From the NCBI GenBank assembly GCA_020832725.1, contig JAFIEC010000418.1:5518-69517 (forward strand): DNA of 64,000 nt, given 5' to 3'. The translations under genes and the position numbers were made by a program. The DNA is from Paracoccaceae bacterium. GTDB taxonomy: Bacteria; Pseudomonadota; Alphaproteobacteria; Rhodobacterales; Rhodobacteraceae. Positions within the stretch are counted from its first letter, which is position 1, and every line of letters begins with the position of its first letter. Shown here in pieces: positions 10,884-39,811 of the stretch. The notes beneath the pieces are model-generated. The model searched no databases and was not told where the DNA came from. It saw only the letters and a program-made list of their open reading frames with translations.

Positions 10884-10973
10884 TGGCGGAGAGAGCGGGA
10901 TTCGAACCCGCGAGACGGTTTCCCGCCTACACGCTTTCCAGGCGTGCGCCTTCGACCACTCGGCCACCTCTCC
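10884..10973 (-). tRNA. tRNA-Ser (anticodon GGA), 90 nt, CCA encoded
   Basis: Manual fold of the reverse complement GGAGAGGTGGCCGAGTGGTCGAAGGCGCACGCCTGGAAAGCGTGTAGGCGGGAAACCGTCTCGCGGGTTCGAATCCCGCTCTCTCCGCCA. It has a 7-bp acceptor stem, anticodon stem CACGC/GCGTG with loop CTGGAAA, a long variable arm, and T-arm GCGGG-TTCGAAT-CCCGC. Confidence 0.9.
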
Positions 10974-19772: not shown

Positions 19773-20651
19773 TCAATCCGCCTGCGCGCGGGCCGTGTCG
19801 GCTTCGGCATCGAGGATCGCGCGCAGGCCGGTGCGGTAATCCGGATAGGCCAGCTTGACGCCCAGTTCCGTGCGGATGCGGTCATTGCGCACGCGTTTGC
19901 TTTCGGCATAGAAGCTGCGCGCCATGGGGCTCAGGTCCGCGTCCTCGAATGCGACCCGTGGCGGTGGCGGCATGTCCAGCAGCGCGGCGGCCTGCGCCAG
20001 CACGTCCTGCGGCGGGGCGGGGTCATCGTCGCAGACGTTATAGACCGCGCCGGGCCGCGGCCGGTCGATCGAGGCTTCCAGCACGGCGGCGATATCGGCG
20101 ACATGGATGCGTGAAAACACCTGTCCGGGCTTGATGATCGCGCGGGCGGTGCCGTTGCGGACCTTCTCGAACGGGCCGCGCCCGGGGCCGTAGATGCCCG
20201 CCAGCCGGAAGATGTGGAGCGGCAGGCCGTAGCGCGCCGCCAGCGCCCGCCAGCCGGTTTCGGCCGAGACGCGCGCGCGCCCGCGGGCCGTGGCGGGGGT
20301 CAGGGGCGTCTCCTCGTCGACCCAGCCGCCGCCGTGATCGCCATAGACGCCGGTGGTGGAAAGATACCCCAGCCAGCGCAGATGCGTGGCCTGCGCCAGC
20401 GCTTCGCTTTCGGCGGCGAGCACCGGATCGCCCCCTTCGGCGGGGGCCACGGAGCTGAGCACATGCGTCGCGCGCGACAGCGGCAGCGGCGTGCCGGGCC
20501 AGATCAGCGGCTCGATCCCTGCGGCCTGCAGCTTCGCCGCCTTGTCCGCGCTGCGTGTGGTGCCGATCACCTGCCAGCCGCGCGCGCGCAGCCGCCGCGC
20601 CAGCGCCTGCGCCGAATACCCGTGTCCGATGGACAGAAGCGTTCCCGTCAT
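19773..20651 (-). CDS. NAD(P)-binding Rossmann-fold protein (extended SDR / epimerase-like), function unknown
   Basis: 292 aa. N-terminal dinucleotide-binding-like segment LLSIGHGYSAQALARRL. High GC3 coding frame. Family assignment from sequence impression only. Confidence 0.6.
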   Translation of the reverse strand: MTGTLLSIGHGYSAQALARRLRARGWQVIGTTRSADKAAKLQAAGIEPLIWPGTPLPLSRATHVLSSVAPAEGGDPVLAAESEALAQATHLRWLGYLSTTGVYGDHGGGWVDEETPLTPATARGRARVSAETGWRALAARYGLPLHIFRLAGIYGPGRGPFEKVRNGTARAIIKPGQVFSRIHVADIAAVLEASIDRPRPGAVYNVCDDDPAPPQDVLAQAAALLDMPPPPRVAFEDADLSPMARSFYAESKRVRNDRIRTELGVKLAYPDYRTGLRAILDAEADTARAQAD

Positions 20652-20742
20652 GCCCCGAGAGATACACGCTTTCGCGGCCTCGGCCAGTGCGGGCGGCGCA
20701 TTTCCGGTTGAAACCGCGGCGCTCCGGGGTCAGTTTCGCTGC

Positions 20743-21255
20743 ATGAGCAAGCGGCAGATCAAGGCGGTTCTGCATCGCACGGCGCTGTGTGCGCTGGTCT
20801 GGCTGGCGTTGACACGCGCCGACCCGGGCGCTTTTGCGCCCGGTGTGGCGGTGGTGGCGGCGGCGGTCTGGCTCAGCCTGCGGCTGCTGCCCGCGCGGCA
20901 CCCGCTGGCGTTGTGGCGGCTGGCGCTGCACCTGCCACGGTTCCTGGCGGGATCGGTCACTGGCGGGCTGGACGTGGCGCGCCGCGCATTGTCGCGCGAC
21001 ATGGGGTTGCGACCGGGCTGGATTTCCCTGCGCGCCGACCTGCCACCCGGCGGGCGCGTCGCGCTGGGGTGCGAGGTCTCGCTCATGCCCGGCACGCTCG
21101 CCGCCGGATCGCGCGCCGACGGGAGGCTGCTGGTGCATGTGCTGGACACCGAAGCCGGGTTCGAGCGGATGCTGGGCCGCGAGGCGCAGGCGCTGGCGCG
21201 GATTGCCGAACTGGAGCACTCGGCCTCATCCCCGGGCGGTGGGGACCAAGCATGA
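20743..21255 (+). CDS. mrpE: Mrp/Mnh-type cation:proton antiporter subunit E
   Basis: 170 aa, MnhE-like (two N-terminal TM segments, SLMPGTL motif). First of eight co-directional genes. ATGA overlap with the next gene. Confidence 0.75.
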   Translation: MSKRQIKAVLHRTALCALVWLALTRADPGAFAPGVAVVAAAVWLSLRLLPARHPLALWRLALHLPRFLAGSVTGGLDVARRALSRDMGLRPGWISLRADLPPGGRVALGCEVSLMPGTLAAGSRADGRLLVHVLDTEAGFERMLGREAQALARIAELEHSASSPGGGDQA

Positions 21256-21593
21256 GCGGCTGGCTGGGCGGCTGGCTTCTGCTTTGCGCGGCGGGCGTGC
21301 TGGCCACGCTGGGCGCGGCGTTGTGGCGGGTCTGGCGCGGCCCGGCGCGGGCCGACCGGATGATGGCGGCGCAACTCGTGGGCACCGGGGGCGTGGCGGT
21401 GCTGTTGCTGCTGGCCCCTGCGCAGGGCTGGGCGGCGCTGGACGTGGCGCTGGTGCTGGCCATTCTGGCCGCGTTGGCGGCCGTGGGCTTCGTCAAGGCC
21501 AGCACCCCTGACGGTGCGGGCGCCCCCGAAGAGGCGGACGCCCCCGCCGACCCGGCGACCGACAGCGCGCGGGGCGACCGCGATGTGGCTTGA
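21252..21593 (+). CDS. mrpF: Mrp/Mnh-type antiporter subunit F
   Basis: 113 aa, three hydrophobic helices, RGPARADRMMAAQLVG resembles the MnhF RGPxxxDRvxAxD motif. Confidence 0.75.
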   Translation: MSGWLGGWLLLCAAGVLATLGAALWRVWRGPARADRMMAAQLVGTGGVAVLLLLAPAQGWAALDVALVLAILAALAAVGFVKASTPDGAGAPEEADAPADPATDSARGDRDVA

Positions 21594-21891
21594 CCTGTCC
21601 AGTTTCGCGCTGACCGCGCTGGGGCTGTTCTTCTTTGTCGCGGGCACGGCGGGGTTGTTGCGCTTCCCTGATACTTTCAGCCGCCTGCACGCGCTGACCA
21701 AAGCCGACAACCTCGGGCTGGGTTGTGTGGCGCTGGGGGTGGCATTGCAGGCGGCGCACTGGACCGATGTGCTGAAGCTCGCGCTGATCTGGGCGCTGGC
21801 GCTGCTGGCGGCGGGGACGGTGGCGCAACTGGTGGCCCGCGCGGCGCTGTCGGAGCCGCGCGCGCGCAAGCGCGCAGGTGAGCGGCCATGA
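21583..21891 (+). CDS. mrpG: Mrp/Mnh-type antiporter subunit G
   Basis: 102 aa. GLLRFPDTFSRLHALTKADNLG matches the MnhG/PhaG signature (RxPDxxxRxHaxxkxxtlG). Confidence 0.8.
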   Translation: MWLDLSSFALTALGLFFFVAGTAGLLRFPDTFSRLHALTKADNLGLGCVALGVALQAAHWTDVLKLALIWALALLAAGTVAQLVARAALSEPRARKRAGERP

Positions 21892-22904
21892 CCGGGACCA
21901 TGACCGGGGCAGCGGCGCTGCTTCTGGACCTGCTGCTGGTGGCGCTGGTGGCCTTTGCAGGCTGGGCGGCGCTGGCGGGGCGGGGGGTGTTCCGCGCGGT
22001 GGTGTTCTTCATCGCCTACGGTCTGCTGGTGGCGCTGGGCTGGGTGCGGCTGGGCGCGGTGAACGTGGCGCTGGCCGAGGCTGCGATCGGCGCCGGGCTG
22101 ACCGGGGTGCTGCTGCTGGCCACGGTGGGGCGGCTGGAACGCGCAGGCGCGGCGCGCGACGTGCCGCCGGTGCGCGGCGCGGCGGCCTGGGTGCCCGCGC
22201 TGGCGGGGCTGGGCGTGACCGGCGCGCTGGTCTGGGCCTGGTTCGCGCTGCCGCTGCCCGAATCCCCGGGCCCGGCGCTGGCCGAGGCGCTGCCGCGCTC
22301 GGGCGTTGAAAACCCGGTGACGGCGGTGCTGCTCAACTTCCGGTCCTGGGACACGCTGCTGGAGGCGATCGTGCTGCTGGCCGCGCTGCTGGGTGTCTGG
22401 ATGCTGGGGCGCGATGGTGACTGGGACGCGCCGCTGGGCCTGCGCCAGCATGTGCGGCCGGGCGGGGTGATGGCGGGCTTTGGCCGCGTGCTGCCGCCGC
22501 TGGGCCTGCTGGTCGGGGTCTGGCTTCTGTGGGCGGGCGCCGATGCGCCGGGGGGCGCGTTTCAGGGCGGCACGGTGCTGGCGGCGGTGATCGTGGTGGC
22601 GCTGATGGCGGGCGTGGCCACGCCGCCGGGGGTGAGCGCGCTGCCCCTGCGCGCCGCACTGGTACTGGGCCCGGGGGTGTTCCTGGGCGCGGGGGGGGTG
22701 CTGGCGGCGCTGGGGGGCGGGTTCCTGACCTTGCCCGAGGCGCAGGCGAAAGTGGTGATCGTGGCGATCGAAGCCGCGCTGACCCTGTCCATCGCGGTCA
22801 CGCTGGCGGGGTTGGTGCTGGGCCCGCCGACGGCGGCGAACGGCACGGCAGAGGGGGGCGCAGAGCCGAACGCGAACGGCCCGGCGGCAGGGAGGCGCGC
22901 ATGA
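21888..22904 (+). CDS. mrpB: Fusion of an MrpA C-terminal-like (DUF4040-type) domain with MnhB/MrpB
   Basis: The N-terminal part has NVALAEAAIGAGLTGVLLL (DUF4040-type). The central part has NPVTAVLLNFRSWDTLLEAIVLLAALLG (MnhB signature). ATGA overlaps on both sides. Confidence 0.75.
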   Translation: MTGTMTGAAALLLDLLLVALVAFAGWAALAGRGVFRAVVFFIAYGLLVALGWVRLGAVNVALAEAAIGAGLTGVLLLATVGRLERAGAARDVPPVRGAAAWVPALAGLGVTGALVWAWFALPLPESPGPALAEALPRSGVENPVTAVLLNFRSWDTLLEAIVLLAALLGVWMLGRDGDWDAPLGLRQHVRPGGVMAGFGRVLPPLGLLVGVWLLWAGADAPGGAFQGGTVLAAVIVVALMAGVATPPGVSALPLRAALVLGPGVFLGAGGVLAALGGGFLTLPEAQAKVVIVAIEAALTLSIAVTLAGLVLGPPTAANGTAEGGAEPNANGPAAGRRA

Positions 22905-23287
22905 CCGGGGCCGAAACCTTCCTGCCCGCCGCCCATGGCGCCGACGTCTATGCGCTGGGGGGCGCGGTGCTGGTGGGTCTTGGCGTCTGGGGGCTGCTGG
23001 CGCTGCGGCATCTGTTGCGCCGAGTGGTGGCGTTCAACGTCATCGGCTCGGGCATCTTCCTGTTCTTTGGCGCCATTGCCGCGCGCGGCGGAGGCGCGCC
23101 GGACCCGGTGCCGCAGGCGCTGATCATCACCGGGATCGTGGTGGCGCTGTCGGCCAGCGCGCTGGCGGTGACGCTGGTCGCCGCTCTGGCGCAGCGGCGC
23201 GGCGGCGCGGTGCTGCCGGGCGAGGGGCGCCAGCCCCCCGAGGCGCCGACCGCGACGCCCCCCGCTGCGGGCCGGGCCGAAGGGTGA
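22901..23287 (+). CDS. mrpC: Mrp/Mnh-type antiporter subunit C (NuoK-like)
   Basis: 128 aa, three helices, LRRVVAFNVIGSGIFLFF and PQALIITGIVVA typical of MnhC/NuoK. GGGAGG RBS upstream. Confidence 0.8.
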   Translation: MTGAETFLPAAHGADVYALGGAVLVGLGVWGLLALRHLLRRVVAFNVIGSGIFLFFGAIAARGGGAPDPVPQALIITGIVVALSASALAVTLVAALAQRRGGAVLPGEGRQPPEAPTATPPAAGRAEG

Positions 23288-24750
23288 GCGCGCTGGTCCT
23301 CCTTCTGGTGCTGCCGCTGGCGGCGGCGCTGGCGACACTGCTCGCCCCGCGCGCGGCCCCCGCGCTGACGCTGGGCAGCGCGGCAGCGGGGGTGGGCGCA
23401 GCGCTGCGGCTGGCGCAGACGGTCGCGCAGGACGGCGTGCAGGCCATCGCGCTGGCGGGCTGGGCGCCGCCGCTGGGGATCACGGTGGCCGCCGACGGGC
23501 TGGCGGCGGCGTTCGTGCTGATGACGGCGCTGGTGATGCTGGCGGTGGCGCTGGCCGCAAAGGTGGACCTGGCGCCCGGCCGGGCGGGGGCGCGCGTGGC
23601 CTTCGGCTTCTGGCCCATCGCGCTGCTGCTCTGGGGGGCGCTGAACGCGGTGTTCCTGTCGCGCGACCTGTTCAACCTCTATGTCGGAATCGAGTTGCTG
23701 ACGCTCGCGGCGGTGGCGCTGGTGGCGCTTTCGGGCAAGCCGGGCGCGCTGGTCGCGGCGATGCGCTACATGATCTTCGCGCTGGCCGGGTCGCTGCTGT
23801 ATCTGCTGGGCGTGGTGCTGGTCTACGGGGGGCATGGCACGCTGGACGTGGGCCTGCTGGCCGCCCGCACCCCGGCTGCGACGGACGCGCTGGCGCTGGC
23901 GCTGATGAGCGCGGGGCTTGCCGCCAAGACGGCGCTGTTTCCGTTCCATGTCTGGCTGCCCCCGGCGCATGCGGGCGCGCCTGCACCGGCCTCGGCGATG
24001 CTCTCGGGGCTGGTGCCAAAGGCCTCGTTCGTGATCCTGATCCGGCTGGGGTTCGAGGCGATGCCGGATCAGGCGGGTGCCGGGGCGCTGTTGCTGCTGG
24101 GCCTGATGGGCGCGGCGGCGGTGATCTGGGGCAGCCTGCGGGCGCTGTCGCAGCCGCGGCTGAAGCTTATCGTCGCCTATTCGACGGTGGCGCAACTGGG
24201 CTACTTGTTCCTGGTCTTCCCGCTGGCGGGGGGCGATGGCGCGGCGCAGCCCTGGGCGGCCGGGGCCTGGACCGGGGCGATGTTTCAGGCGCTGTCGCAC
24301 GGGCTGGCCAAGGCGGCAATGTTCCTGTGCGCGGGGCTGTGGGTCATGGCCGCCGGGGGGGACCGGCTGACGGACCTGCGCGGGCTGGCGCGGCCGATGC
24401 CGATGACTGCCATGGCCTTTGGCCTTGCGGCGGTGACGCTGATGGGGCTGCCGCCCTCGGGCGGGTTCACGGCCAAGTATCTGATGATGACCGCCGCCTT
24501 TGCCTCGGGGCAATGGGGCTGGGCGCTGGTGCTGGCCGGGGGCGGGCTGCTGGCGGCGGGCTATCTGTATCGCCCGATGGCCGAGGTTTTCGCCCGCGAC
24601 TGTCCGGTCACGCCGCAGCCGGTGGCGCGTGCCTGGCAGGCGGTGCCGCTGGCACTGGCGCTGGCGGCGATCGTGCTGGGCCTGATCTCGGCACCGCCCT
24701 TCGATCTGCTGCAGGTCGGGCGCCCCGCGGCGGCGGAGGTGGGGCTGTGA
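23284..24750 (+). CDS. mrpD: Mrp subunit D-like proton-conducting membrane transporter (NuoN/NuoM family), copy 1
   Basis: 488 aa polytopic. Motifs FNLYVGIELLTL, KTALFPFHVWLPPAHAGAPAPASAMLSG, AYSTVAQLGY. GTGA overlap with mrpC. Confidence 0.85.
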   Translation: MSALVLLLVLPLAAALATLLAPRAAPALTLGSAAAGVGAALRLAQTVAQDGVQAIALAGWAPPLGITVAADGLAAAFVLMTALVMLAVALAAKVDLAPGRAGARVAFGFWPIALLLWGALNAVFLSRDLFNLYVGIELLTLAAVALVALSGKPGALVAAMRYMIFALAGSLLYLLGVVLVYGGHGTLDVGLLAARTPAATDALALALMSAGLAAKTALFPFHVWLPPAHAGAPAPASAMLSGLVPKASFVILIRLGFEAMPDQAGAGALLLLGLMGAAAVIWGSLRALSQPRLKLIVAYSTVAQLGYLFLVFPLAGGDGAAQPWAAGAWTGAMFQALSHGLAKAAMFLCAGLWVMAAGGDRLTDLRGLARPMPMTAMAFGLAAVTLMGLPPSGGFTAKYLMMTAAFASGQWGWALVLAGGGLLAAGYLYRPMAEVFARDCPVTPQPVARAWQAVPLALALAAIVLGLISAPPFDLLQVGRPAAAEVGL

Positions 24751-24788
24751 TCGACCTTTCCCGCCTCGCTTCAGATTGCGCGCATGAA

Positions 24789-24838
24789 GCGCCCTCGGGC
24801 CGCGCCCACCCACCCGCCCCTGCACGCCCCGAGGGCGC
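24789..24838 (+). repeat. GC-rich hairpin with invariant loop CCCACCCACCCGCCCC (family copy 1)
   Basis: Arms GCGCCCTCGGGCCGCGC / GCACGCCCCGAGGGCGC (2 mismatches) flank the exact 16-mer at 24805-24820. The same 16-mer recurs at 52485, 60247 and, reversed, at 51342. Confidence 0.8.
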
Positions 24839-24864
24839 CTGCCCCTGCCGGGGGCAGGGGCAGG
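24838..24864 (+). repeat. Perfect 12-bp-stem hairpin in the mrpD1-mrpD2 spacer
   Basis: CCTGCCCCTGCC-GGG-GGCAGGGGCAGG read directly from the sequence. It abuts the family hairpin. Confidence 0.75.
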
Positions 24865-24913
24865 GGGCGGCCTGTGAAGACGGGGTGCGCCGCGATCCTT
24901 GGCGGGCGGCGCC

Positions 24914-26377
24914 ATGACCGCATTCCTGCCCGTGGCGGTGCTGCTGTCTTCGCTGATCCCGGCCGTCGTCACCTTCTTTCTGGATCAGGAGGCGCACCGG
25001 CTGCGCAACGCGCTGACCCTGGGGGGCGCGGTGCTGAAGCTGGCCCTTATCGTCGCCATGCTGGTCGCGGTGGCGGGCGGCGCGGCCTATGAGGCGCGGC
25101 TGTCGCTGGCGCCCGGGCTCTATATCCTGCTCAGGCTGGATGCGGTGGCGCTGCTGTTCCTGTCGCTCTCGGCCGTGCTGTGGCTGCTGACCACCGTCTA
25201 TGCCATCGCCTATTTCGGCACCAAGGCGGAGCTGTCGCGCTTCTTCGGCTTCTTCAGCCTCTGCGTCGCGGCCACCACCGGGCTGGCCATGTCCGGCACG
25301 CTGATTTCCTTCCTCATCTTCTTCGAGTTGCTGACGCTGTCGACCTGGCCGCTGGTCGCGCACAAGCAGGACCGCCCCTCGCTTTCGGCGGCGCGCAGCT
25401 ACCTGTTCTATGCGCTGCCCGCCAGCGCGGCCCTGCTGATCGCCGTGATCTGGCTGGAAGCGGCCACCGGGCCGGTGGTGTTCATCGAGGCGGTGGATTT
25501 CGGCGCGCTGTCGGAAAACAGCCAGCGCGCCATCTTCGCGCTGTTCATGCTGGGCGTGGGCGTGAAGGCGGCGCTGGTGCCGCTGCACGGATGGTTGCCG
25601 GCGGCGATGGCGGCCCCCGCGCCGGTGTCGGCACTGCTGCATGCGGTGGCGGTGGTCAAGGCCGGGGCCTTTGGCGTGATCCGCGTGATCTATGACGTGT
25701 TCGGCCCCGAGCGGGTGGCGGCGTTGGGGGTCGGCGTGCCGCTGGCCGCGCTGGCTTCGGTCACCATCCTCTGGGGGTCGCTCCGGGCGCTGCAGCAGGA
25801 CGAGATCAAGAAGCGTCTGGCCTTTTCCACCGTCAGTCAGGTCAGCTACATCGTGCTGGCCGCGGCGCTGGCCAGCCCGGCTGCGCTGGTGGGGGGGCTG
25901 GCGCATCTGGTGCATCAGGGGCTGATGAAGATCACGCTGTTCTTCTGCGCGGGCATCTATGACGAGCGCGCGGGCGTCAAGCGCATCGACGGGCTGGACG
26001 GGCTGGGGCGGCGCATGCCCTGGACCTCGACCGCGTTTTCCGTGGGCGCGCTGGGAATGATCGGCCTGCCGCCGCTGGCGGGGTTCATCTCCAAGCTGTA
26101 TCTCGGGCTTGGCGGGCTGGAAGCCGGTGCGCCCTGGGTGCTGGCGGTGCTGGCGGGATCGACGCTGCTCAACGCGGCCTATTTCCTGCCGCTGCTGTAT
26201 CGGCTGTGGATCGTGCCCGCGCGAGACGGCGCGGCGGGGGACGAGCGCGCGCCGGGGCTGTTGGCGCCTGCGGTGGTGACGGCGCTGGCTTCGGTCGCGG
26301 TCGGTGTGCTGGCAGCGAGCGCGCTCAGCCCGCTGAGTTGGGCCGACCTGATCGTTGCGCGGGGGTATCTGCGATGA
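24914..26377 (+). CDS. Mrp subunit D-like proton-conducting membrane transporter, copy 2
   Basis: About 487 aa. Motifs KAALVPLHGWLPAAMAAPAPVSALLHA and AFSTVSQVSYIV. Start is ATG 24914 or TTG 24899. Its stop overlaps the next start (ATGA). Confidence 0.85.
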   Translation: MTAFLPVAVLLSSLIPAVVTFFLDQEAHRLRNALTLGGAVLKLALIVAMLVAVAGGAAYEARLSLAPGLYILLRLDAVALLFLSLSAVLWLLTTVYAIAYFGTKAELSRFFGFFSLCVAATTGLAMSGTLISFLIFFELLTLSTWPLVAHKQDRPSLSAARSYLFYALPASAALLIAVIWLEAATGPVVFIEAVDFGALSENSQRAIFALFMLGVGVKAALVPLHGWLPAAMAAPAPVSALLHAVAVVKAGAFGVIRVIYDVFGPERVAALGVGVPLAALASVTILWGSLRALQQDEIKKRLAFSTVSQVSYIVLAAALASPAALVGGLAHLVHQGLMKITLFFCAGIYDERAGVKRIDGLDGLGRRMPWTSTAFSVGALGMIGLPPLAGFISKLYLGLGGLEAGAPWVLAVLAGSTLLNAAYFLPLLYRLWIVPARDGAAGDERAPGLLAPAVVTALASVAVGVLAASALSPLSWADLIVARGYLR

Positions 26378-28011
26378 ATGCGCTTGTCACCGGGCCGGTC
26401 TGGCCGCTTCTGGTGCTGATCTGGCCGCTGCTGCTGGCGCTGGTGCCGGTGCTGCGGGCGGGGCGCGCGCATGCGCTGCAGGTGCTGCCCTTTGCGCCGC
26501 TGCCCGCGCTGGCGCTGGCGCTGGGGGGCGCGGGTGGCGTGACCGAGGCGCCGGACCTGCTGCTGGGCGTGGTGCTGGCAGCGGAACCGGCGGGCGTGCT
26601 GCTGCTGGGCGTCACGGCGCTGATCTGGGCCGTGGCAGGCTGGCAGGCGGCGCATACGCTGGAGCCCGGCGCGCAGGCGGGCATCTTCGCAGGCTTCTGG
26701 GGCCTGACGCTGGCGGGGAACCTGGGCGTGTTCCTGGCCGCCGATGCGGTGACCTTCTACGTGGCCTTTGCCGCCGTGTCGCTGGCAGCCTGGTTCCTGG
26801 TCATCCACGACCGGACCGACGCGGCGCTGGCCGCCGGGCGGGTCTATATCGTCATGGCGGTGCTGGGCGAGGTGGCGCTGCTCATCGGCCTGATCCTGGG
26901 CGTGCAGGCGGCGGGGTCGATGCTGATCGCCGATATCCGCGCGGCCTGGGGGCAGGCACCGGCGGTGGCGCCCTGGCTGTTGCTGGCGGGGTTCGGGATC
27001 AAGGCGGGGATGGTGCCCCTGCATGTCTGGCTGCCGCTGGCGCATCCGGCCGCCCCGGTGCCGGGGTCGGCGGTGCTGTCGGGCGCAATCGTCAAGGCGG
27101 GGCTGATCGGGGTGCTGCTGCTGCTGCCGCCCCAGACGGTCGGCGCTGCGCTGCTGGCGCTGGGGCTGGCCGGGGCCTTCGGCGCGGCGCTCTGGGGTCT
27201 GACGCAGACCGACGCAAAGGCGGTGCTGGCCTATTCCACGGTCAGCCAGATGGGCCTGATGCTGGCGCTGGCGGGCGCCGGGCAGGGGGCGGTGGCCTAT
27301 TACGCCGCGCATCACGGGCTGGCGAAGGGGGCGCTGTTCCTGTCGGTGGGGGCGGTGCTGGCCGCAACGGGCCGCGCGCGGGTCGCCGCGCTGGCGGTGG
27401 CGGCGGTGGCCGCCGGATCGGTGGCCGGGCTGCCGCTTTCGGGGGGCGCGCTGGCCAAGGCCGCCGCCAAGCCGGGGCTGGCCGACTGGCTGGCCCAGGC
27501 GATCACCGCCAGCAGTGTCACCACGGCATTGGTCATGGGCTGGTTCCTGTGGCGGCTGCACCGCAGCGCATTGAAGAAATCCACCCGGGCGCCGGGCGTG
27601 CAGGTGGCGGCGGCGGCGGTCCTGACGCTGGCCGCGCTCGCCGCGCCCTGGGCGCTCTGGGCGGGCTGGGTCGACCTGCCGCCCGACTACGCGCTGGGCC
27701 GCGCCCCGGTGATCGAGGCGCTGGTGCCCGTGCTGGGGGGATTGGCGGTGCTGGCGCTGGTGCTGCGCCACCCGCCGCGCGCGCGCGCGCCCGGTGACCT
27801 GCTGCTGGTGCTGCCTCGGCTGCGGCTACGCTGGACCGAGGCGTGGGCAGTGCCCGGGTCGGCACTGCCGACCGCGTTCCGCAGCCAGCTTCACCGCAGC
27901 CTGCGCCGCGGGGCGGCGGCGCTGCGGCTGGTCGATGGCTGGGTCTGCCGCTGGCCGTTTACCGGAACGGTGCTGGTGGGGATGGCGCTGGTGCTGGTCT
28001 GGATCATGTAA
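26374..28011 (+). CDS. Third NuoL/MrpA/MrpD-like antiporter subunit (545 aa)
   Basis: Motifs KAGMVPLHVWLPLAHPAAPVPGSAVLSGAIVKAG and AYSTVSQMGLML. Last gene of the cluster. May supply the NuoL-like part of a split MrpA (inference). Confidence 0.8.
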   Translation: MNALVTGPVWPLLVLIWPLLLALVPVLRAGRAHALQVLPFAPLPALALALGGAGGVTEAPDLLLGVVLAAEPAGVLLLGVTALIWAVAGWQAAHTLEPGAQAGIFAGFWGLTLAGNLGVFLAADAVTFYVAFAAVSLAAWFLVIHDRTDAALAAGRVYIVMAVLGEVALLIGLILGVQAAGSMLIADIRAAWGQAPAVAPWLLLAGFGIKAGMVPLHVWLPLAHPAAPVPGSAVLSGAIVKAGLIGVLLLLPPQTVGAALLALGLAGAFGAALWGLTQTDAKAVLAYSTVSQMGLMLALAGAGQGAVAYYAAHHGLAKGALFLSVGAVLAATGRARVAALAVAAVAAGSVAGLPLSGGALAKAAAKPGLADWLAQAITASSVTTALVMGWFLWRLHRSALKKSTRAPGVQVAAAAVLTLAALAAPWALWAGWVDLPPDYALGRAPVIEALVPVLGGLAVLALVLRHPPRARAPGDLLLVLPRLRLRWTEAWAVPGSALPTAFRSQLHRSLRRGAAALRLVDGWVCRWPFTGTVLVGMALVLVWIM

Positions 28012-33055: not shown

Positions 33056-34432
33056 TCAGGGCCGCAACGGCGACCATGCCGGGTCCGAGGCAGGCCCCGG
33101 CGTGGGGATGCGGCGCAGGTTGCGCCCCGAGATGTCCACCGACCACAGCGCCGGATCGCCGCCTGCGGTCTCGCGGGTGAACATGATGACGCGGCCATTG
33201 GGCGCCCAGGTCGGCCCTTCGTCAAGGAACGAGGCCGTGAGCAGGCGTTCCTCGGACCCGTCGGTGCGCATCACGCCGATATGGAACCGGCCCTGGTGCG
33301 ACTTGGTGAAGGCAATCAGGTCGCCGCGCGGTGACCAGACCGGCGTGCCGTAGCGCCCCTGGCCGAAGCTGATGCGCCGGGCCTCGCCGCCGTTCGCAGG
33401 CATGATGTAAAGCTGCGAGGTGCCCGAGCGGTCGGATTCGAACACCACCCGGCTGCCATCGGGCGAGAAGCTGGGCGCGGTGGCGATCGACGGTGCGTTG
33501 GTCAACTGCAGCCGCTGCCCGTTCGACAGGTTCAGCCGGTAAAGGTCCGTGGTCCCGCCGACCGACAGCGAATAGATCATGCTGCCGCCATCGGGCGAAA
33601 AGCGGGGCGCGAAGGTCATGGTGCCGGGCTGGTCGCCCACCACCTGCCGCCGCATGGTGGCCAGGTCCATCAGATAGATGCGCGGCGTGCCGGTTTCATA
33701 GCTGGTATAGAGGATCCGCTCGCCATTGGGCGAAAACCGCGGTGCAATCACCAGCGCGCGCCCGTCGGTCAGATATTCGACATTGGCGCCGTCCTGATCC
33801 ATCACCGCCAGCCGTTTCACGCGGTTTTCGCGCGGACCCGATTCGGCGACGAACACCACGCGGCTGTCGAAATAGCCGCCCTCTCCGGTGATGCGGCTGT
33901 AGACCGCGTCCGAGACCTTGTGCGCCATGCGCCGCCAGGCATCGGTGCTGCCCTGGAATTGCAGCCCGTCGCCCATCTGCCGCCCCGAGACGATGTCGAA
34001 CAGGCGGAACTTGACCGACATGCGGTTGCCCTGCACCGATACCGCGCCGGTGATCAGCGCCTGCGCGTTGATCGCCCGCCAGTCGGCATATTGCACCGGG
34101 GCATCAAAGCTGGTGATCCGCGCGATATGGGCCGAGGCCGGGATCTCGCGGAACAGTCCGGTGTTGCTCAGGTTCGCGGAGATCACGCGGGAAAGCTGGT
34201 CGGAATACTGCTGCCCGGCGCTGTTTTCGGCCACGAAGGCCGGCACGGCGAAAGGCATCGGTTCGATCACGCCTTCGGTGATTTCGATCCGCAGCGGTCC
34301 GGACTGGGCCTGCGCGGCACTTGCGGTCAGGAGCAGCGCAAGCGTGGCAAGCATGCCAAGCGCGCAGGCCAGCGCGGCGAACAACGCCGCGCGAACGGGC
34401 CGGAACGGGGCAGGGTGGGCAAGAATACTCAT
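33056..34432 (-). CDS. tolB: Tol-Pal system beta-propeller protein TolB
   Basis: 458 aa. N-terminal TolB domain plus repeated PxFSPDG propeller motifs ([43 protein letters not shown]). ATGA overlap with tolA. Confidence 0.9.
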
Positions 34433-35652
34433 CTGATACGCATCCCTTCGGGGTTGAACGTGATTTCTATATCACGCCAGTGATCGTATTTCTCGGGCGG
34501 CAGGCCGTAGCCGTCGCCGGCGCAGCGGATGATCGCGCGGCGCGCGGCCTCGAAGGCCTGCGAGGTGGCCGACTCGCCGCCGCCCGAGGCGCTGATCATC
34601 CGGATCGAGCCCATTTCGGGCATGGCGTTGGGGGTCATGGACACGCCCACCACCACGGTCACGCCCATCGCCTCGGTCGACAGCGCGCCCAGGTTCCAGC
34701 ATTGCTGCACCGCCAGGCGCAGCCCGTCGGCTTCGGACTGGCTCAGCCCGCCGGTGGCGGCGCGCGCGGGGCCGGGGTCGGCGGCACCGCCTGCCAGCGC
34801 CTCGGCCAGTGCATCGGCGATAGCGTCGCGCGGGGCCTCGGGCTCGGGGTCCGGTTCGGGCGCGGGTTGCGGCGGCGGTGCGGGCCGTTCGGCGGTCTGC
34901 GCGGGTTCGGGCTGGGGCTCCGGTTGGGGTTCGGGTTCGGGCCGGGGTTGCGGGCGCTCGGGGCGGCGCTGCGGGCGCGGGCTGATCTCGGGCGCGCGGG
35001 CGGCCAGGTCCAGCGACTCGCGGTCGGTTTCCGTCGCTTCGGTGACGATCTCGGTGGTGGCCTCGGGCAGGGCGGTGGCCTGGGCTTCGGGTTCCACCAC
35101 TTCTGCCTCGCGTTCGGCATCGGGGGTGATCGCCGCGGACTCGGCGATGTCGATGCGGGCCTCGGGGTCGGGGGCCTCGCTCGGCGTGGGGGCGACGCGG
35201 TCCACGGGGCGCGGGCGCGGGCGCACCGAACTGCCCGGCGCGGGCAGGGGTGAAAACACGACACCGGTTTCAGGCACAACAGGCGCCGCCGGTTCGGGCT
35301 GTGGCTGCGGTTCCGGTTCGGGCTGCGGTGCGGGGGCCGGTTCCGGCGCGGGCGCGGGGGGCGGGTCCTGCTCCAGCGGTGCCGGTGCGGCGATTTCCGG
35401 TTCGGGGGTGGGTTCGGGCGCCGGTTCGGGGGCCGGTTCGGGCTCGGGCGCCGGCGCCGGTTGCGGCGCCGGGTCGGGGCTGCGCGCGGGGGCCTGCAAT
35501 GCGGCGAATTCCTCGGCCGAGATCAGGGCGACATCGGTCACGGGCACGCGCATGCCGGAATCGGGCGCGCGGAACAGGTCACCGACCATCACCCAGAGGA
35601 TGAGGCCGATGTGCATGGCGCCCGAAATCTTCTGTCCCGTGTCCAGGGGCAT
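34429..35652 (-). CDS. tolA: TolA (membrane anchor, very Pro/Glu-rich linker, C-terminal TolA domain)
   Basis: Position between tolR and tolB. N-terminal TM segment ([14 protein letters not shown]). Long PEPEP/PAPEP low-complexity region. Confidence 0.75.
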
Positions 35653-36958: not shown

Positions 36959-37357
36959 TTATCCGTGATCGATGCAAAGGGCGCGCAGCGCGGCGGGAAA
37001 CCGCCGGGGGCGGGCGCCCGCGTCCAGGCAGACCAGCACCACGCGGGCGTCGAACAGGAGCGCATCGCCGCGCCGCACCTGCTGGCGCAGGGTCAGCCGC
37101 GCAGGGGTCGCGGCCTCTGCCTCGGTGGTGACGCTCAGCAGATCGTCGAACCGGGCCGGGGCCAGATAGTCGGCCTCTACCCGCCGGACGGCGAAGACCA
37201 GACCTTGTTCGGCCTTCAGCGCCGCCTGATCGACCCCCAGCGCCCGCACCCACTCGCTGCGCGCGCGTTCGATGAACTTCAGGTAATTCGCGTAATAGAC
37301 GATGCCCGCAAGGTCGGTGTCCTCGTAATAGACGCGGACGGAGTGGGTGTGGGTCAT
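36959..37357 (-). CDS. ybgC: Tol-Pal-associated acyl-CoA thioesterase YbgC (4HBT hotdog fold)
   Basis: 132 aa. N-terminus VRVYYEDTDLAGIVYYANYLKFIERAR. First gene of the tol cluster. Confidence 0.85.
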   Translation of the reverse strand: MTHTHSVRVYYEDTDLAGIVYYANYLKFIERARSEWVRALGVDQAALKAEQGLVFAVRRVEADYLAPARFDDLLSVTTEAEAATPARLTLRQQVRRGDALLFDARVVLVCLDAGARPRRFPAALRALCIDHG

Positions 37358-37507
37358 TTGGTGTCCTTCCGTCCTTGTGCGCCGTCTGGGGGGCGTGCGG
37401 TGCGCGACCCTCTAGCATCGGCGCGCGACCGGGGCCACGGGGAAGGCGGGCGGAACGGGGCGGGGGGGCAGGCGGGATCCTACCGGGAGTCATGTTGGAC
37501 GGGGATC

Positions 37508-39187
37508 ATCCGAACACCTGATAAGGACAACCATATGAAAAAAAGTTGTGTTTATCGAATATTCAAGTAATTCCAGAGGCCTGGGTGTATACACACGCCC
37601 AAGCTAGGCTTCAAAAACTCTTCCCCGCGATGAAACCAATAATATCGCCTCGCGTTGAAAGAGTCATCGTAATTTCCAATAACACCGTAATGAAACAAGT
37701 CGTCAACGAGTGTGGAGGTATTCGCAAATCCAAACTTCGCTATGACTGATCTATCGAATTCATCAAATGACTTGTAAAGTCTCTTGTTTATATTCTCCCT
37801 AAGTGTTTTAGCGATGGCATTCCCATGTCTTACGCTTATCTCATCCTTGATTTCATTCATCGCTCGCCTTGAATACTCGTTAAGCGCATTCTTTATCTCA
37901 TCTTCCCCTATTCTGGGTGAATCTGGGTTCTCGTCTGCTATCGAGTTGAGTAGCTGCACAACATCACGAGGTCGTCCCCAAGTGTTTATTTTAATAAAAT
38001 TCTCAAGTAGAATGGTCTTCTTTCCGAAATTAATTTTGGGTTCAACAAAATCAGCAAAATTGATTACTTCTAGATGTTTGGAGTGAATGACTTTCTGGAT
38101 AAGAAGTCGAAACAGAAGTGTCTCGCTCCCATCACTCATGTCCCATTCTAGCTTAACGCTTTTGCCGTCCACGAGTTTTCCGATTTCGGAATCCATGTCA
38201 TTAAGCAGATTCCGAATCTCTGGTCTGAGCGCACATACAATGTGAAAATCAAGATTGTGCTTAATAAAGAAATTATTTAATTCACGAGCTGATCTCAGTA
38301 TGTCACGGACCATCGCTGCCCGAACCTTAACCTCGTCATCTGCTGCATCAAGTCGCGACAAAACTAGCTCGTCAACATACAAGTAAAACAAATGATCTTG
38401 ATGGTGACGCCTCAATAGCTCGAGCGCTGCACTGATATACTCACTCAAGGGAACTTCGCTCCCCCCTTTGTATTTGGCGAAGTCAAATCCAACAGACGCT
38501 GAAATGTCAAACATCTCTGCAGATATCTCAACTGAGGCTGATTTCAAAACACCTTCGAAAATAGACGAGAGTCGACTCCTCTTTCCAAGGACGAATTTCG
38601 TAAATTGTGAAGTGAATGAGTTCTCACTCAGCTCTTCAGCAATTTTTACCAAAAAAGTTCTAAGCCAAATTTCTCGAAAATCATAATTCAAAAAAATGTT
38701 CCTAGAATTAACAACTCCCAGCATATCTATTTTTTGGGTTCTCGCGGCGCTATTGTAGTCTTTTGGCTTGACATCGGAGTGAAACGAAAAAAACTTTGAT
38801 ATGTATCCCTTTTCTTTTAGTTTTTCCGACAAGTAAAACTGAACAGCCGTTTTTCCTGAGCCTTTTCGTCCAACAATAATGTATTTTCTCTTGTTGTTGA
38901 GTGAATTCATCGAAAACGAGGTCGGCAGAATGAAAGTCGAGTGGAAATACTCGGGAAAGTTGTTGCCTTCGTCAATCGCCTCCACGTCGCCAAAGTAACA
39001 ATCAGACAGCATCTCTTATCCATCCATCGTCAGCACATTGATAAACGCCGCCTGCGGGATATCGACCTTCCCGAACTGGCGCTTCTTCTTCGTACCCGTT
39101 TTCTGATTCTCGAGCAATGTCTTCTTGCACGCCATGTCCCCGCCGTTGGCTGCCTGGATCGGTATTTCAAACATGTTGCGGGGGATC
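37508..39187. other. Low-GC islet (foreign composition) inserted between yqgE and the ybgC-tol promoter region; no recombinase seen
   Basis: There is an abrupt switch near 37510 from GC-rich flank to AT-rich DNA: by eye about 35-40% G+C over 37.55-39.01 kb, intermediate over 39.02-39.19 kb. Imperfect direct repeats lie at 37491-37507 and 39172-39187. Confidence 0.6.
37552..39012 (-). CDS. Orphan soluble P-loop NTPase (486 aa), family unassigned; candidate defence/abortive-infection ATPase
   Basis: Uninterrupted 486-codon ORF in AT-rich DNA. Walker A GRKGSGKT (aa 48-55), Walker B YLYVDE (aa 210-215), Arg-rich TWGRPRD (aa 344-350). No TM segments and no recognisable nuclease, protease or TIR motif. 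Confidence 0.85.
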   Translation of the reverse strand: MLSDCYFGDVEAIDEGNNFPEYFHSTFILPTSFSMNSLNNKRKYIIVGRKGSGKTAVQFYLSEKLKEKGYISKFFSFHSDVKPKDYNSAARTQKIDMLGVVNSRNIFLNYDFREIWLRTFLVKIAEELSENSFTSQFTKFVLGKRSRLSSIFEGVLKSASVEISAEMFDISASVGFDFAKYKGGSEVPLSEYISAALELLRRHHQDHLFYLYVDELVLSRLDAADDEVKVRAAMVRDILRSARELNNFFIKHNLDFHIVCALRPEIRNLLNDMDSEIGKLVDGKSVKLEWDMSDGSETLLFRLLIQKVIHSKHLEVINFADFVEPKINFGKKTILLENFIKINTWGRPRDVVQLLNSIADENPDSPRIGEDEIKNALNEYSRRAMNEIKDEISVRHGNAIAKTLRENINKRLYKSFDEFDRSVIAKFGFANTSTLVDDLFHYGVIGNYDDSFNARRYYWFHRGEEFLKPSLGVCIHPGLWNYLNIR

Positions 39188-39210
39188 GGCGCCTTGATGT
39201 TTTCGCACAT
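39016..39210 (-). CDS. Small basic hypothetical protein (64 aa, or 52 aa from ATG 39174), stop 3 nt before the NTPase start
   Basis: ORF with moderately high GC3. TAA at 39016-39018, then GAG, then the NTPase ATG at 39012. Lys-rich centre [20 protein letters not shown]. No homology recognised. Confidence 0.4.
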
Positions 39211-39229
39211 GCCGCCGCCCCGCCACGCC

Positions 39230-39811
39230 TCAGGCCCGCCCCGCCGCGCCCGACAGCATCACCGGGTCCACGCCCAGCGCGCGCAGCGCGGCCTCCCATT
39301 GCGCGGGGGGCGCGGTGTCGAAGACCAGCGCGGCAGTGGCGGCGACGCTCAGCCAGCCGTTGGCAAGGATCTCCTCCTCCAGTTGCCCCGGCGCCCAGCC
39401 CGCATAGCCCAGCATCATCCGCGCCCGCGCCGGGCCGCGCCCGTGCAGCATGTCCTCGAGGATATCAAGCGTGGCGCTCATGGCGATGCCCTCGGCCACC
39501 GGCAGGGTGGTGGCACCGCCATCATACTCGGCGCTGTGCAGCACGAATCCGCGGCCATGCTCCACCGGACCGCCGAAATGGACCGCTGCATCGGGTGCGC
39601 TGTGCTGCGCGTCCTCGGCGACCAGTTCCAGATGCGCCATCAGCGCGCCCAGCCGCAGGTCCGGCAGCGGCTTGTTGACGATCAGCCCCATGGCGCCCTG
39701 CGGCGAGTGCGAGCAGATACAGACCACGCTGCGCGCGAATCGCATGTCGGGCATGCCGGGCATGGCGATCAGCAGCTTGCCGGTCAGGTCCAGGTGATCC
39801 GAGGCGCTCAT
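39230..39811 (-). CDS. yqgE: YqgE/AlgH family protein (UPF0301)
   Basis: 193 aa from ATG 39811. [40 protein letters not shown] and [14 protein letters not shown] are characteristic. Confidence 0.85.

Follow-up and report, generated by a model that had tools for sequence, protein, structure and literature searches.

An Intact Sll1717-Family P-Loop ATPase Gene on a Horizontally Acquired Cassette in a Paracoccaceae Genome: A Candidate Single-Gene Anti-Phage Switch

A 64,000-nucleotide (nt) stretch of a Paracoccaceae bacterium genome (GenBank assembly GCA_020832725.1, contig JAFIEC010000418.1, positions 5,518 to 69,517; hereafter the window, with positions numbered within it) carries on its minus strand, at 37552-39012, an intact gene for a P-loop ATPase of 486 amino acids (aa) that, judged by profile comparison, almost certainly belongs to the Sll1717 family (NF047389). 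The gene was horizontally acquired as a promoter-less 1.7-kb cassette that brought with it a piece of the 3′ end of a donor lepA gene. Its most likely role, to which we give somewhat better than an even chance, is that of a single-gene anti-phage defence switch, a role suggested by a distant family member with validated activity, DS-41, and by the genomic behavior of the family as a whole. It is already known that the family is catalogued, has thousands of members and includes one published defence gene; the window extends this little-studied, effector-less single-gene defence candidate into the high-GC Alphaproteobacteria.

The ATPase, Its Family and the Link to DS-41

An initial annotation of this DNA, prepared without database searches, described an orphan, soluble, stand-alone P-loop NTPase of foreign composition, and apart from the word orphan that description has stood. 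The open reading frame (ORF) was confirmed and is taken to be real because 1,461 nt of open frame in AT-rich DNA far exceeds chance. Its GC content is 41%, compared with 66-73% in the flanks (100-nt windows) and 70% in the genome, and the composition changes in sharp steps at ~37520 and ~39200-39230. No transmembrane helices are predicted, the highest Kyte-Doolittle 19-residue mean being 0.9, and scans with Pfam, PADLOC and NCBIfam models found no nuclease, protease, TIR or SIR2 domain, in agreement with what had been read from the translation. A protein of identical sequence has been recorded from a Rhodobacteraceae metagenome-assembled genome (MAG) and from two independent read sets.

That the protein is no orphan was evident from the profile scans that the initial annotation had proposed as a check. 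In the NCBIfam scan, NF047389 ("P-loop ATPase, Sll1717 family") matched with 199.7 bits (E 9.1e-59; curated cut-off 75 bits), and the match is colinear and full length, placing residues 7-483 on positions 1-454 of the 454-position profile, while the PADLOC models recognized the P-loop only. phrog_13260, a family of unknown function, also matches over the full length (E 8e-37). A word-indexed search recovered 45 homologues, mostly alphaproteobacterial, with 41-77% identity to the window ATPase, and an exhaustive profile search recovered 4,093 related clusters at E ≤ 1e-3, with 570 of them at E ≤ 1e-30; a search of the open-access literature for 'Sll1717' returned no match. Clusters of the family mostly comprise stand-alone proteins of 500-530 aa. 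A few members have C-terminal extensions, two of which are S1 RNA-binding domains (in P0131 and P0145, both Sll1717-type ATPases with the S1 domain fused at the C terminus), and in other members extensions of ~100 aa or ~300 aa could not be annotated. Within the family, the window ATPase sits in an alphaproteobacterial sub-clade that has its own habit of following lepA or parE.

Conservation across 100 diverse members delineates a complete set of nucleotide-handling residues. The Walker A motif GRKGSGKT (aa 48-55; 38848-38871) and the Walker B motif YLYVDE (aa 210-215; 38368-38385) lie where the initial annotation had placed them. Invariant in all 100 are G48, G51, G53 and K54 of Walker A, D214 of Walker B (which E215 follows, the family consensus being FxDELE), R263, W290 and R349, and every one of these is present in the window ATPase; nearly invariant are G8, E15, K50, T55, W116, N246, P348, D350, Y380, E387 and E391, together with L439, G443, G446 and H476 toward the C terminus. 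R263 (38224-38226), invariant in alignments A1 and A3, occupies the sensor-1 position and closes a strand (aa 255-262) that is present in the structure model. An arginine at the sensor-1 position is typical of STAND NTPases. R349 falls in the RPRD motif (aa 347-350; 37963-37974), in which P348 and D350 are nearly invariant, and in the model it is placed in a helical lid where it resembles an AAA+ sensor-2 residue. The surrounding Arg-rich segment TWGRPRDVVQLLN (aa 344-356) had been likened to the lid of KAP NTPases; it does hold a conserved motif of lid type, but KAP models do not match the protein. In the model, the catalytic set is complete, comprising K54/T55 of Walker A, D214/E215 of Walker B, R263 at the sensor-1 position and R349 of the lid.

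The initial annotation had also remarked on the wide spacing of the Walker motifs, 155 residues, and this is explained by a mostly helical insert between them (aa 81-200; 38413-38772). This insert is the least conserved part of the protein, with a mean top-residue frequency of 0.25-0.29 compared with 0.35-0.50 elsewhere, and the least confidently modeled, with a predicted local distance difference test score (pLDDT) of 52-71 in most blocks. It contains the sequence LSEY, which had been offered as a decayed ABC signature at aa 188-191; LSEY is found at aa 189-192 and is not conserved in the family, so that reading is abandoned. The spacing does not reflect a KAP, ABC or OLD layout, and the fold predicted by modeling is AAA+/STAND-like.

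An AlphaFold2 model of the whole protein reached a pLDDT of 84.2 and a predicted template modelling score of 0.81. Foldseek comparison of this model with the PDB, which the initial annotation had also recommended, returned AAA+/STAND-like neighbors, among them BrxC of BREX (9zll_B; E 5e-5, probability 1.00), the archaeal ATPase SSO1545 (2fna; probability 1.00, template-modelling score [TM-score] 0.54 normalized by target length) and TnsC (7rzy; TM-score 0.54, likewise normalized by target length), with further matches to ORC/Cdc6, DnaA, MalT, the plant NLRs Sr35 and RPP1, Dark and Avs4. TM-scores to these AAA+ neighbors are low (0.3-0.54). A search of viral folds in BFVD gave generic AAA ATPases only, and sequence searches of the PDB, made with the single protein and with a 100-sequence profile, gave P-loop matches only and no solved sequence relative. 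The conserved C-terminal alpha/beta domain (aa 361-486; 37555-37932) carries the near-invariant G443, G446 and H476 and includes the segment HYGVIG...EEF (aa 441-466). When the C-terminal 191 aa (aa 296-486) were modeled separately the pLDDT was 90.6, and a fold search of the PDB with this part yielded nothing significant, the weak matches (E 1.1 or worse) being to RuvB, NB-ARC, CED-4 and winged-helix regulators. A winged-helix identity for the domain is conjecture because of this lack of a significant fold neighbor, and the earlier remark that the last ~120 aa resemble nothing recognizable proved apt.

The connection with phage defence comes through DS-41, a single gene from Escherichia coli named 'AAA2' (WP_033812887.1, 502 aa) that was validated in the DefensePredictor study (Science 2026; PMC13092281). 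In E. coli, DS-41 reduces plating of phage Bas63 by 3.6 log, of Bas3 by 2.7 log and of Bas19 by 2.3 log (PMC13092281). With 399 of its 502 residues scored, DS-41 reaches 92.2 bits on NF047389, which exceeds the cut-off, and relatives 45-87% identical to it are named 'P-loop ATPase, Sll1717 family' by NCBI and UniRef. The Sll1717 family as NCBI defines it therefore holds a validated defence gene. Comparison by hhalign of profiles built from the window branch and the DS-41 branch gave a probability of 82% (E 1e-5, 187 columns), superseding an uninformative single-sequence alignment of the family against DS-41 (9.8% probability). DS-41 aligns to the window-branch profile colinearly across both Walker motifs, W290 and the P-R-[DE] lid motif, with RPRD of the window ATPase aligned to SPRE of DS-41. 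DS-41 is nonetheless only distantly related to the window ATPase, and a common function is something we infer by analogy. The candidacy of the window ATPase as a DS-41 equivalog was rejected: on the corresponding model, NF053860 ('DS41_1 anti-phage protein'), 370 bits are required.

The second line of evidence is the genomic setting of the family. Across many phyla the gene has a GC content of 34-46% in about 38 of 40 loci (L001-L056), whatever that of the host (~29% to 73%), which makes the composition a trait of the family as a whole, and no partner gene is conserved across 45 loci. Tyrosine recombinase (7 ORFs) is the most frequent Pfam family among 149 ORFs that flank 31 distant members, followed by SMC_N, DNA methylases, rve transposases, AAA_21 and DUF4145, and PADLOC matches among the same ORFs comprise MADS components, PD-Lambda-2_B and PARIS AriA. 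In one case the gene is embedded in a type I restriction-modification (R-M) operon, flanked by hsdS and hsdR at distances of 35 and 25 nt (L029, 344-6329). Two members from Pseudomonas come 60-81 nt after an integrase gene, another member is found 35 nt after guaA, and Lactococcus phage CAP has a homologue at its end, behind the lysin gene. In IMG/VR, scanned with alignment A1, five of the eight matches are at contig ends. Relatives are found on ninety plasmids; on one of these, from Vibrio cholerae, the copy has an IS3 element and AbiEi/AbiEii nearby. Mobile accessory genes and defence genes typically behave in this way.

Some of the plasmid-borne relatives carry a name that is in use for other proteins too. 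Distant homologues on Bacillus plasmids (H3, H5-H7 and H10) are annotated 'FunZ', and pXO2-sized plasmids of B. anthracis hold only the C-terminal half of a homologue. UniRef also uses 'FunZ' for RdrA-like proteins, and a literature search for the name gave one match, a table entry that describes it as a phase-variable gene of Neisseria and a site of phage insertion.

A Promoter-Less Cassette Bearing the 3′ End of lepA

The foreign insert, comprising the lepA remnant, the ATPase gene and a tail of ~30 nt, extends from 37523 to 39227, as defined by the steps in GC content and by breaks in synteny with relatives in which the site is empty. It amounts to 1.7 kb at 41% GC and occupies the spacer between two host genes transcribed from the minus strand: directly upstream is a YqgE/AlgH gene (Pfam DUF179; 39230-39811), 90-94% identical in relatives, and directly downstream a ybgC-type thioesterase gene (Pfam 4HBT; 36959-37357), the first of the tolQRAB cluster, in synteny with L090-L094.

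Between the DUF179 gene and the ATPase lies a 64-codon ORF (39016-39210) that had been taken for a member of the cassette; its frame stays open as far as the original stop codon, 3 nt short of the ATPase ATG. As a partner gene for the ATPase it can be ruled out, as it is a lepA remnant: PF06421 (LepA_C) matches it with 52.8 bits against a cut-off of 29.7. The remnant as a whole (39016-39223, minus strand) corresponds to LepA residues ~515-604 with an in-frame deletion of 22 codons (66 nt), and tblastn aligns it to residues 515-604 of Phaeobacter italicus LepA. Its GC content of 56% is close to that of a donor lepA (58%), unlike the 70%-GC host. The block is colinear, at 71-79% nucleotide identity, with the lepA tail and ATPase gene of Roseinatronobacter sp. 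S2 (L080), which harbors the closest relative (77% identity) 2 nt after lepA. A full-length lepA stands directly before the ATPase gene in four relatives (loci L001, L079, L080 and L081), namely Roseinatronobacter sp. S2, Phaeobacter italicus, an Amaricoccus MAG and a JGI metagenome contig. The donor arrangement is thereby shown to be an ATPase gene 2-3 nt behind lepA, and the remnant, as a fossil of it, shows that what moves is hardly more than the bare ORF, taken from the 3′ side of a housekeeping gene.

The state of the site in relatives indicates that the insertion is recent. In L090-L092, where the DUF179 protein is 90% identical, the spacer is empty and 261 nt long, with the same synteny from photolyase through tolB; in L093 and L094, where it is 94% identical, the same spacer holds a different ORF of 236 aa, on the opposite strand and of ~55% GC, which in L093 (3971-4681) and L094 has no Pfam or PADLOC match. 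Being empty, filled by the ATPase cassette or filled otherwise among relatives, the DUF179-ybgC spacer is a variable hotspot, and it offers a natural experiment in which an empty site, this cassette and a different gene can be compared. Host homology stops at 39228 and resumes at ~37522, such that ~140 nt of the ancestral 261-nt spacer have been replaced. Only short G/C-rich microhomology is present at the left junction, no convincing terminal repeats were found at the boundaries, and the insert contains no recombinase gene. Imperfect G-rich inverted repeats of 18 nt (78-83% complementary) at 37447-37466 and 39212-39252 bracket the insert; they are probably due to chance, as they are of low complexity and displaced from the right boundary.

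A search for promoters and terminators of the insert's own gave counts equal to the shuffled expectation, with none suitably placed. The order of elements is the DUF179 stop codon, 19 nt, the leader ORF in the lepA remnant, 3 nt and the ATPase start codon, all on the same strand, and this spacing makes both transcriptional read-through and stop-start coupling plausible. Transcription of the ATPase gene would thus proceed by read-through from the DUF179 gene, its probable source, and translation may be coupled to that of the leader ORF.

The window copy is one instance of a wider habit. In Rhodobacterales the gene is repeatedly found 2-36 nt behind a housekeeping gene on the same strand. Family loci with this placement, behind lepA, ParE/GyrB-type genes or guaA and without a recombinase, are L001, L002, L004, L007, L008, L038 and L079-L083. 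There are five lepA contexts, with the window remnant included, and at L002, L004, L007 and L083 the preceding gene encodes a 653-aa ParE-type topoisomerase subunit; at L008 it is a paralogous GyrB/ParE-type gene, ~41% identical to the others, and the ATPase is there 31% identical to the rest. Divergence of the ATPases is rapid: they share 52-64% identity in cases where the LepA proteins beside them share 81-86%. The habit may reflect targeting of these sites, selection for positions at which a promoter-less cassette is expressed, or a functional link with the preceding gene.

Elsewhere in the window, the region 20000-28000 has 73-76% GC, a strong positive GC skew and an AT skew of -0.3 to -0.4, and holds numerous overlapping ORFs longer than 330 aa on both strands; four minus-strand ORFs there have no Pfam match. 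Tandem repeats of 24 and 36 nt at 35288-35479 lie within tolA (34429-35652, minus strand) and encode a Pro/Glu/Ala-rich linker, and a single tRNA gene on the minus strand at 10887-10973, far from the ATPase locus, is the sole Rfam match in the window.

Anti-Phage Defence and the Alternatives

If the protein is a defence switch, the following course of events can be envisaged. The ATPase would act as a nucleotide-dependent switch, with the variable insert and/or the C-terminal domain detecting a phage-derived cue; the low conservation of aa 81-200 makes that insert a candidate sensor surface. The cue would trigger nucleotide exchange, which in turn would lead to oligomerization, and the output might be ATP-driven binding or remodeling of nucleic acid or of a host or phage protein, a form of output proposed because the ATPase carries no effector domain. 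The S1 fusions of some members are a hint that the target is RNA. Any specific effector step deserves far less confidence than the defence role itself.

Several observations weigh against that role. Phage protection is a finding on the E. coli protein DS-41 (PMC13092281), and the distance between DS-41 and the window ATPase is considerable: the window ATPase attains just 38.6 bits on NF053860, its best stretch being aa 21-86, DS-41 reaches only 8.7 bits on the window-branch profile, and at the position of the invariant R263 of the window branch the DS-41 clade has a Trp, likewise invariant. PADLOC v2 gives the window ATPase only a 15-bit P-loop match, to PtuA. The neighborhood survey suggested by the initial annotation found integrases, R-M genes and defence genes beside distant members, but in the Rhodobacterales clade to which the window ATPase belongs it is housekeeping genes, and not defence islands, that surround the gene. 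The insert has no promoter-like site upstream of the ATPase gene, and pseudogenes occur among close relatives, the copy of Roseinatronobacter sp. S2 being split by a frameshift into 307 + 170 aa (L080, 7001-8460) and that of HTCC2083 also frameshifted (L007, 10001-11414), with both broken copies still at their 'native' sites. With no effector domain to point to, the mechanism sketched above is conjecture. The earlier proposal of an undescribed defence module has accordingly been retained in part: defence is the best-supported reading, but the family has been described and DS-41 is published.

The lack of a promoter and the two broken copies are also what would be expected if the gene were a decaying hitch-hiker, a foreign ORF that recently landed in a spacer, is not expressed and is heading for loss. 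The adjoining piece of lepA is itself a pseudogene and the site is empty in relatives. We regard this as unlikely, given that the 486 codons form an unbroken frame in AT-rich DNA with every family-invariant residue kept, that an identical sequence was obtained from two independent samples, and that the gene lies on the same strand as an expressed-looking host gene, 19 nt and 3 nt below it by way of an open leader, where read-through is plausible. Just as unlikely in our estimate is a role in maintaining or targeting a mobile element, whether as a regulator resembling TnsC, TniB or IstB or as an initiator resembling ORC/Cdc6 or DnaA. The Foldseek matches to TnsC (7rzy, 0.54), DnaA and ORC/Cdc6, the presence of the family on plasmids and viral contigs and beside integrases, and the precision with which insertions lie behind conserved genes would all suit such a protein; yet neither in the window nor in the lepA and parE contexts does a transposase, integrase or replication gene accompany the cassette, the boundaries show displaced, low-complexity G-rich matches in place of terminal inverted repeats, and what moves is in essence the ORF, to which no conserved partner gene belongs.

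The remaining possibilities take the preceding genes as their starting point. An accessory or regulatory function in housekeeping, tied to translation through LepA, to DNA topology through ParE/GyrB or to respiration, would account for the co-oriented placement 2-36 nt behind lepA (five cases), ParE/GyrB-type genes (five) and guaA (one), and the S1 domain of some members could be read in the same way; the idea of respiration goes back to Synechocystis Sll1717, which reportedly has a redox phenotype. This is the least probable of the explanations considered. The gene is patchily distributed, its site being empty in close relatives; nearly everywhere it is rich in AT, and it has diverged rapidly compared with LepA and ParE; pseudogenes exist, and members occur in phages, plasmids and R-M operons; and the window copy is separated from any intact lepA. 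A variant of the defence role is that the cassette is a promoter-less 'operon-tail' immune gene, which is selectively directed to, or kept at, the 3′ ends of conserved genes of translation and replication (lepA, parE/gyrB and guaA), is expressed by read-through and stop-start coupling, perhaps guards these host functions, and has in the lepA-remnant frame a functional leader and not debris. Were this so, the ATPase would fire when a phage perturbs LepA- or topoisomerase-linked processes, though we think it improbable, slightly more so than the hitch-hiker or mobile-element explanations. A single-gene anti-phage switch stays the most likely role.

Comparison with Known NTPase Systems

Some of the systems that the protein brings to mind can be set aside. 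KAP, ABC and OLD proteins share with the window ATPase only the wide Walker A-B spacing. A KAP layout was rejected given no KAP_NTPase (PF07693) match at E ≤ 10 and no inserted transmembrane helices, an ABC layout given that ABC_tran reaches only E 0.16 on the P-loop (aa 37-95) and that LSEY, being unconserved in the family, is not a decayed signature, and an OLD layout given no Toprim or nuclease domain. RdrA of RADAR was likewise rejected: there is no PADLOC match to RdrA and no deaminase neighbor, and the Foldseek match to 8fnu_A has a probability of 0.69 (E 0.011).

Closer likenesses are found among STAND and AVAST-type proteins (Avs, NLR, MalT, Apaf-1/CED-4), with which the model has in common a P-loop core, a sensor-1 arginine, a helical lid and a C-terminal module of alpha/beta type. 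H476, nearly invariant, may be compared with the His of the STAND-type MHD motif, bearing in mind that winged-helix fold matches have E 1.1 or worse. Unlike STAND proteins, the window ATPase has no TPR, WD40 or LRR repeat sensor and no separate effector domain in Pfam and PADLOC scans, ending at residue 486. No Pfam STAND model passes its threshold, nSTAND3 matching the P-loop region only with 21.1 bits against a gathering cut-off of 27.2; the other sub-threshold Pfam matches are NPHP3_N, an ORC-CDC6-like model and AAA_7. The ORC/Cdc6-like AAA+ model PF24389 gives 21.1 bits on aa 21-57 against a cut-off of 27, and family member P0127 passes it with 29.6 bits. BrxC and SSO1545 (2fna) are the best structural neighbors and share a core plus lid of AAA+ type; in distinction from BREX, no BREX partner genes lie beside the window ATPase. 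In its predicted fold the window ATPase resembles STAND proteins, ORC/Cdc6 and BrxC but falls short of the full definition of each.

The most instructive comparison is with DS-41, which itself has a remote HHblits match to Avs1B. Both are single proteins of ~500 aa that score above the NF047389 cut-off and have no effector domain, and both display an N-terminal acidic motif, a Walker A motif near residue 50, a long insert, a Walker B motif, a conserved Trp (W290 in the window ATPase, within 'ISWN' in DS-41) and a P-R-[DE] lid motif. They differ in their C-terminal regions.

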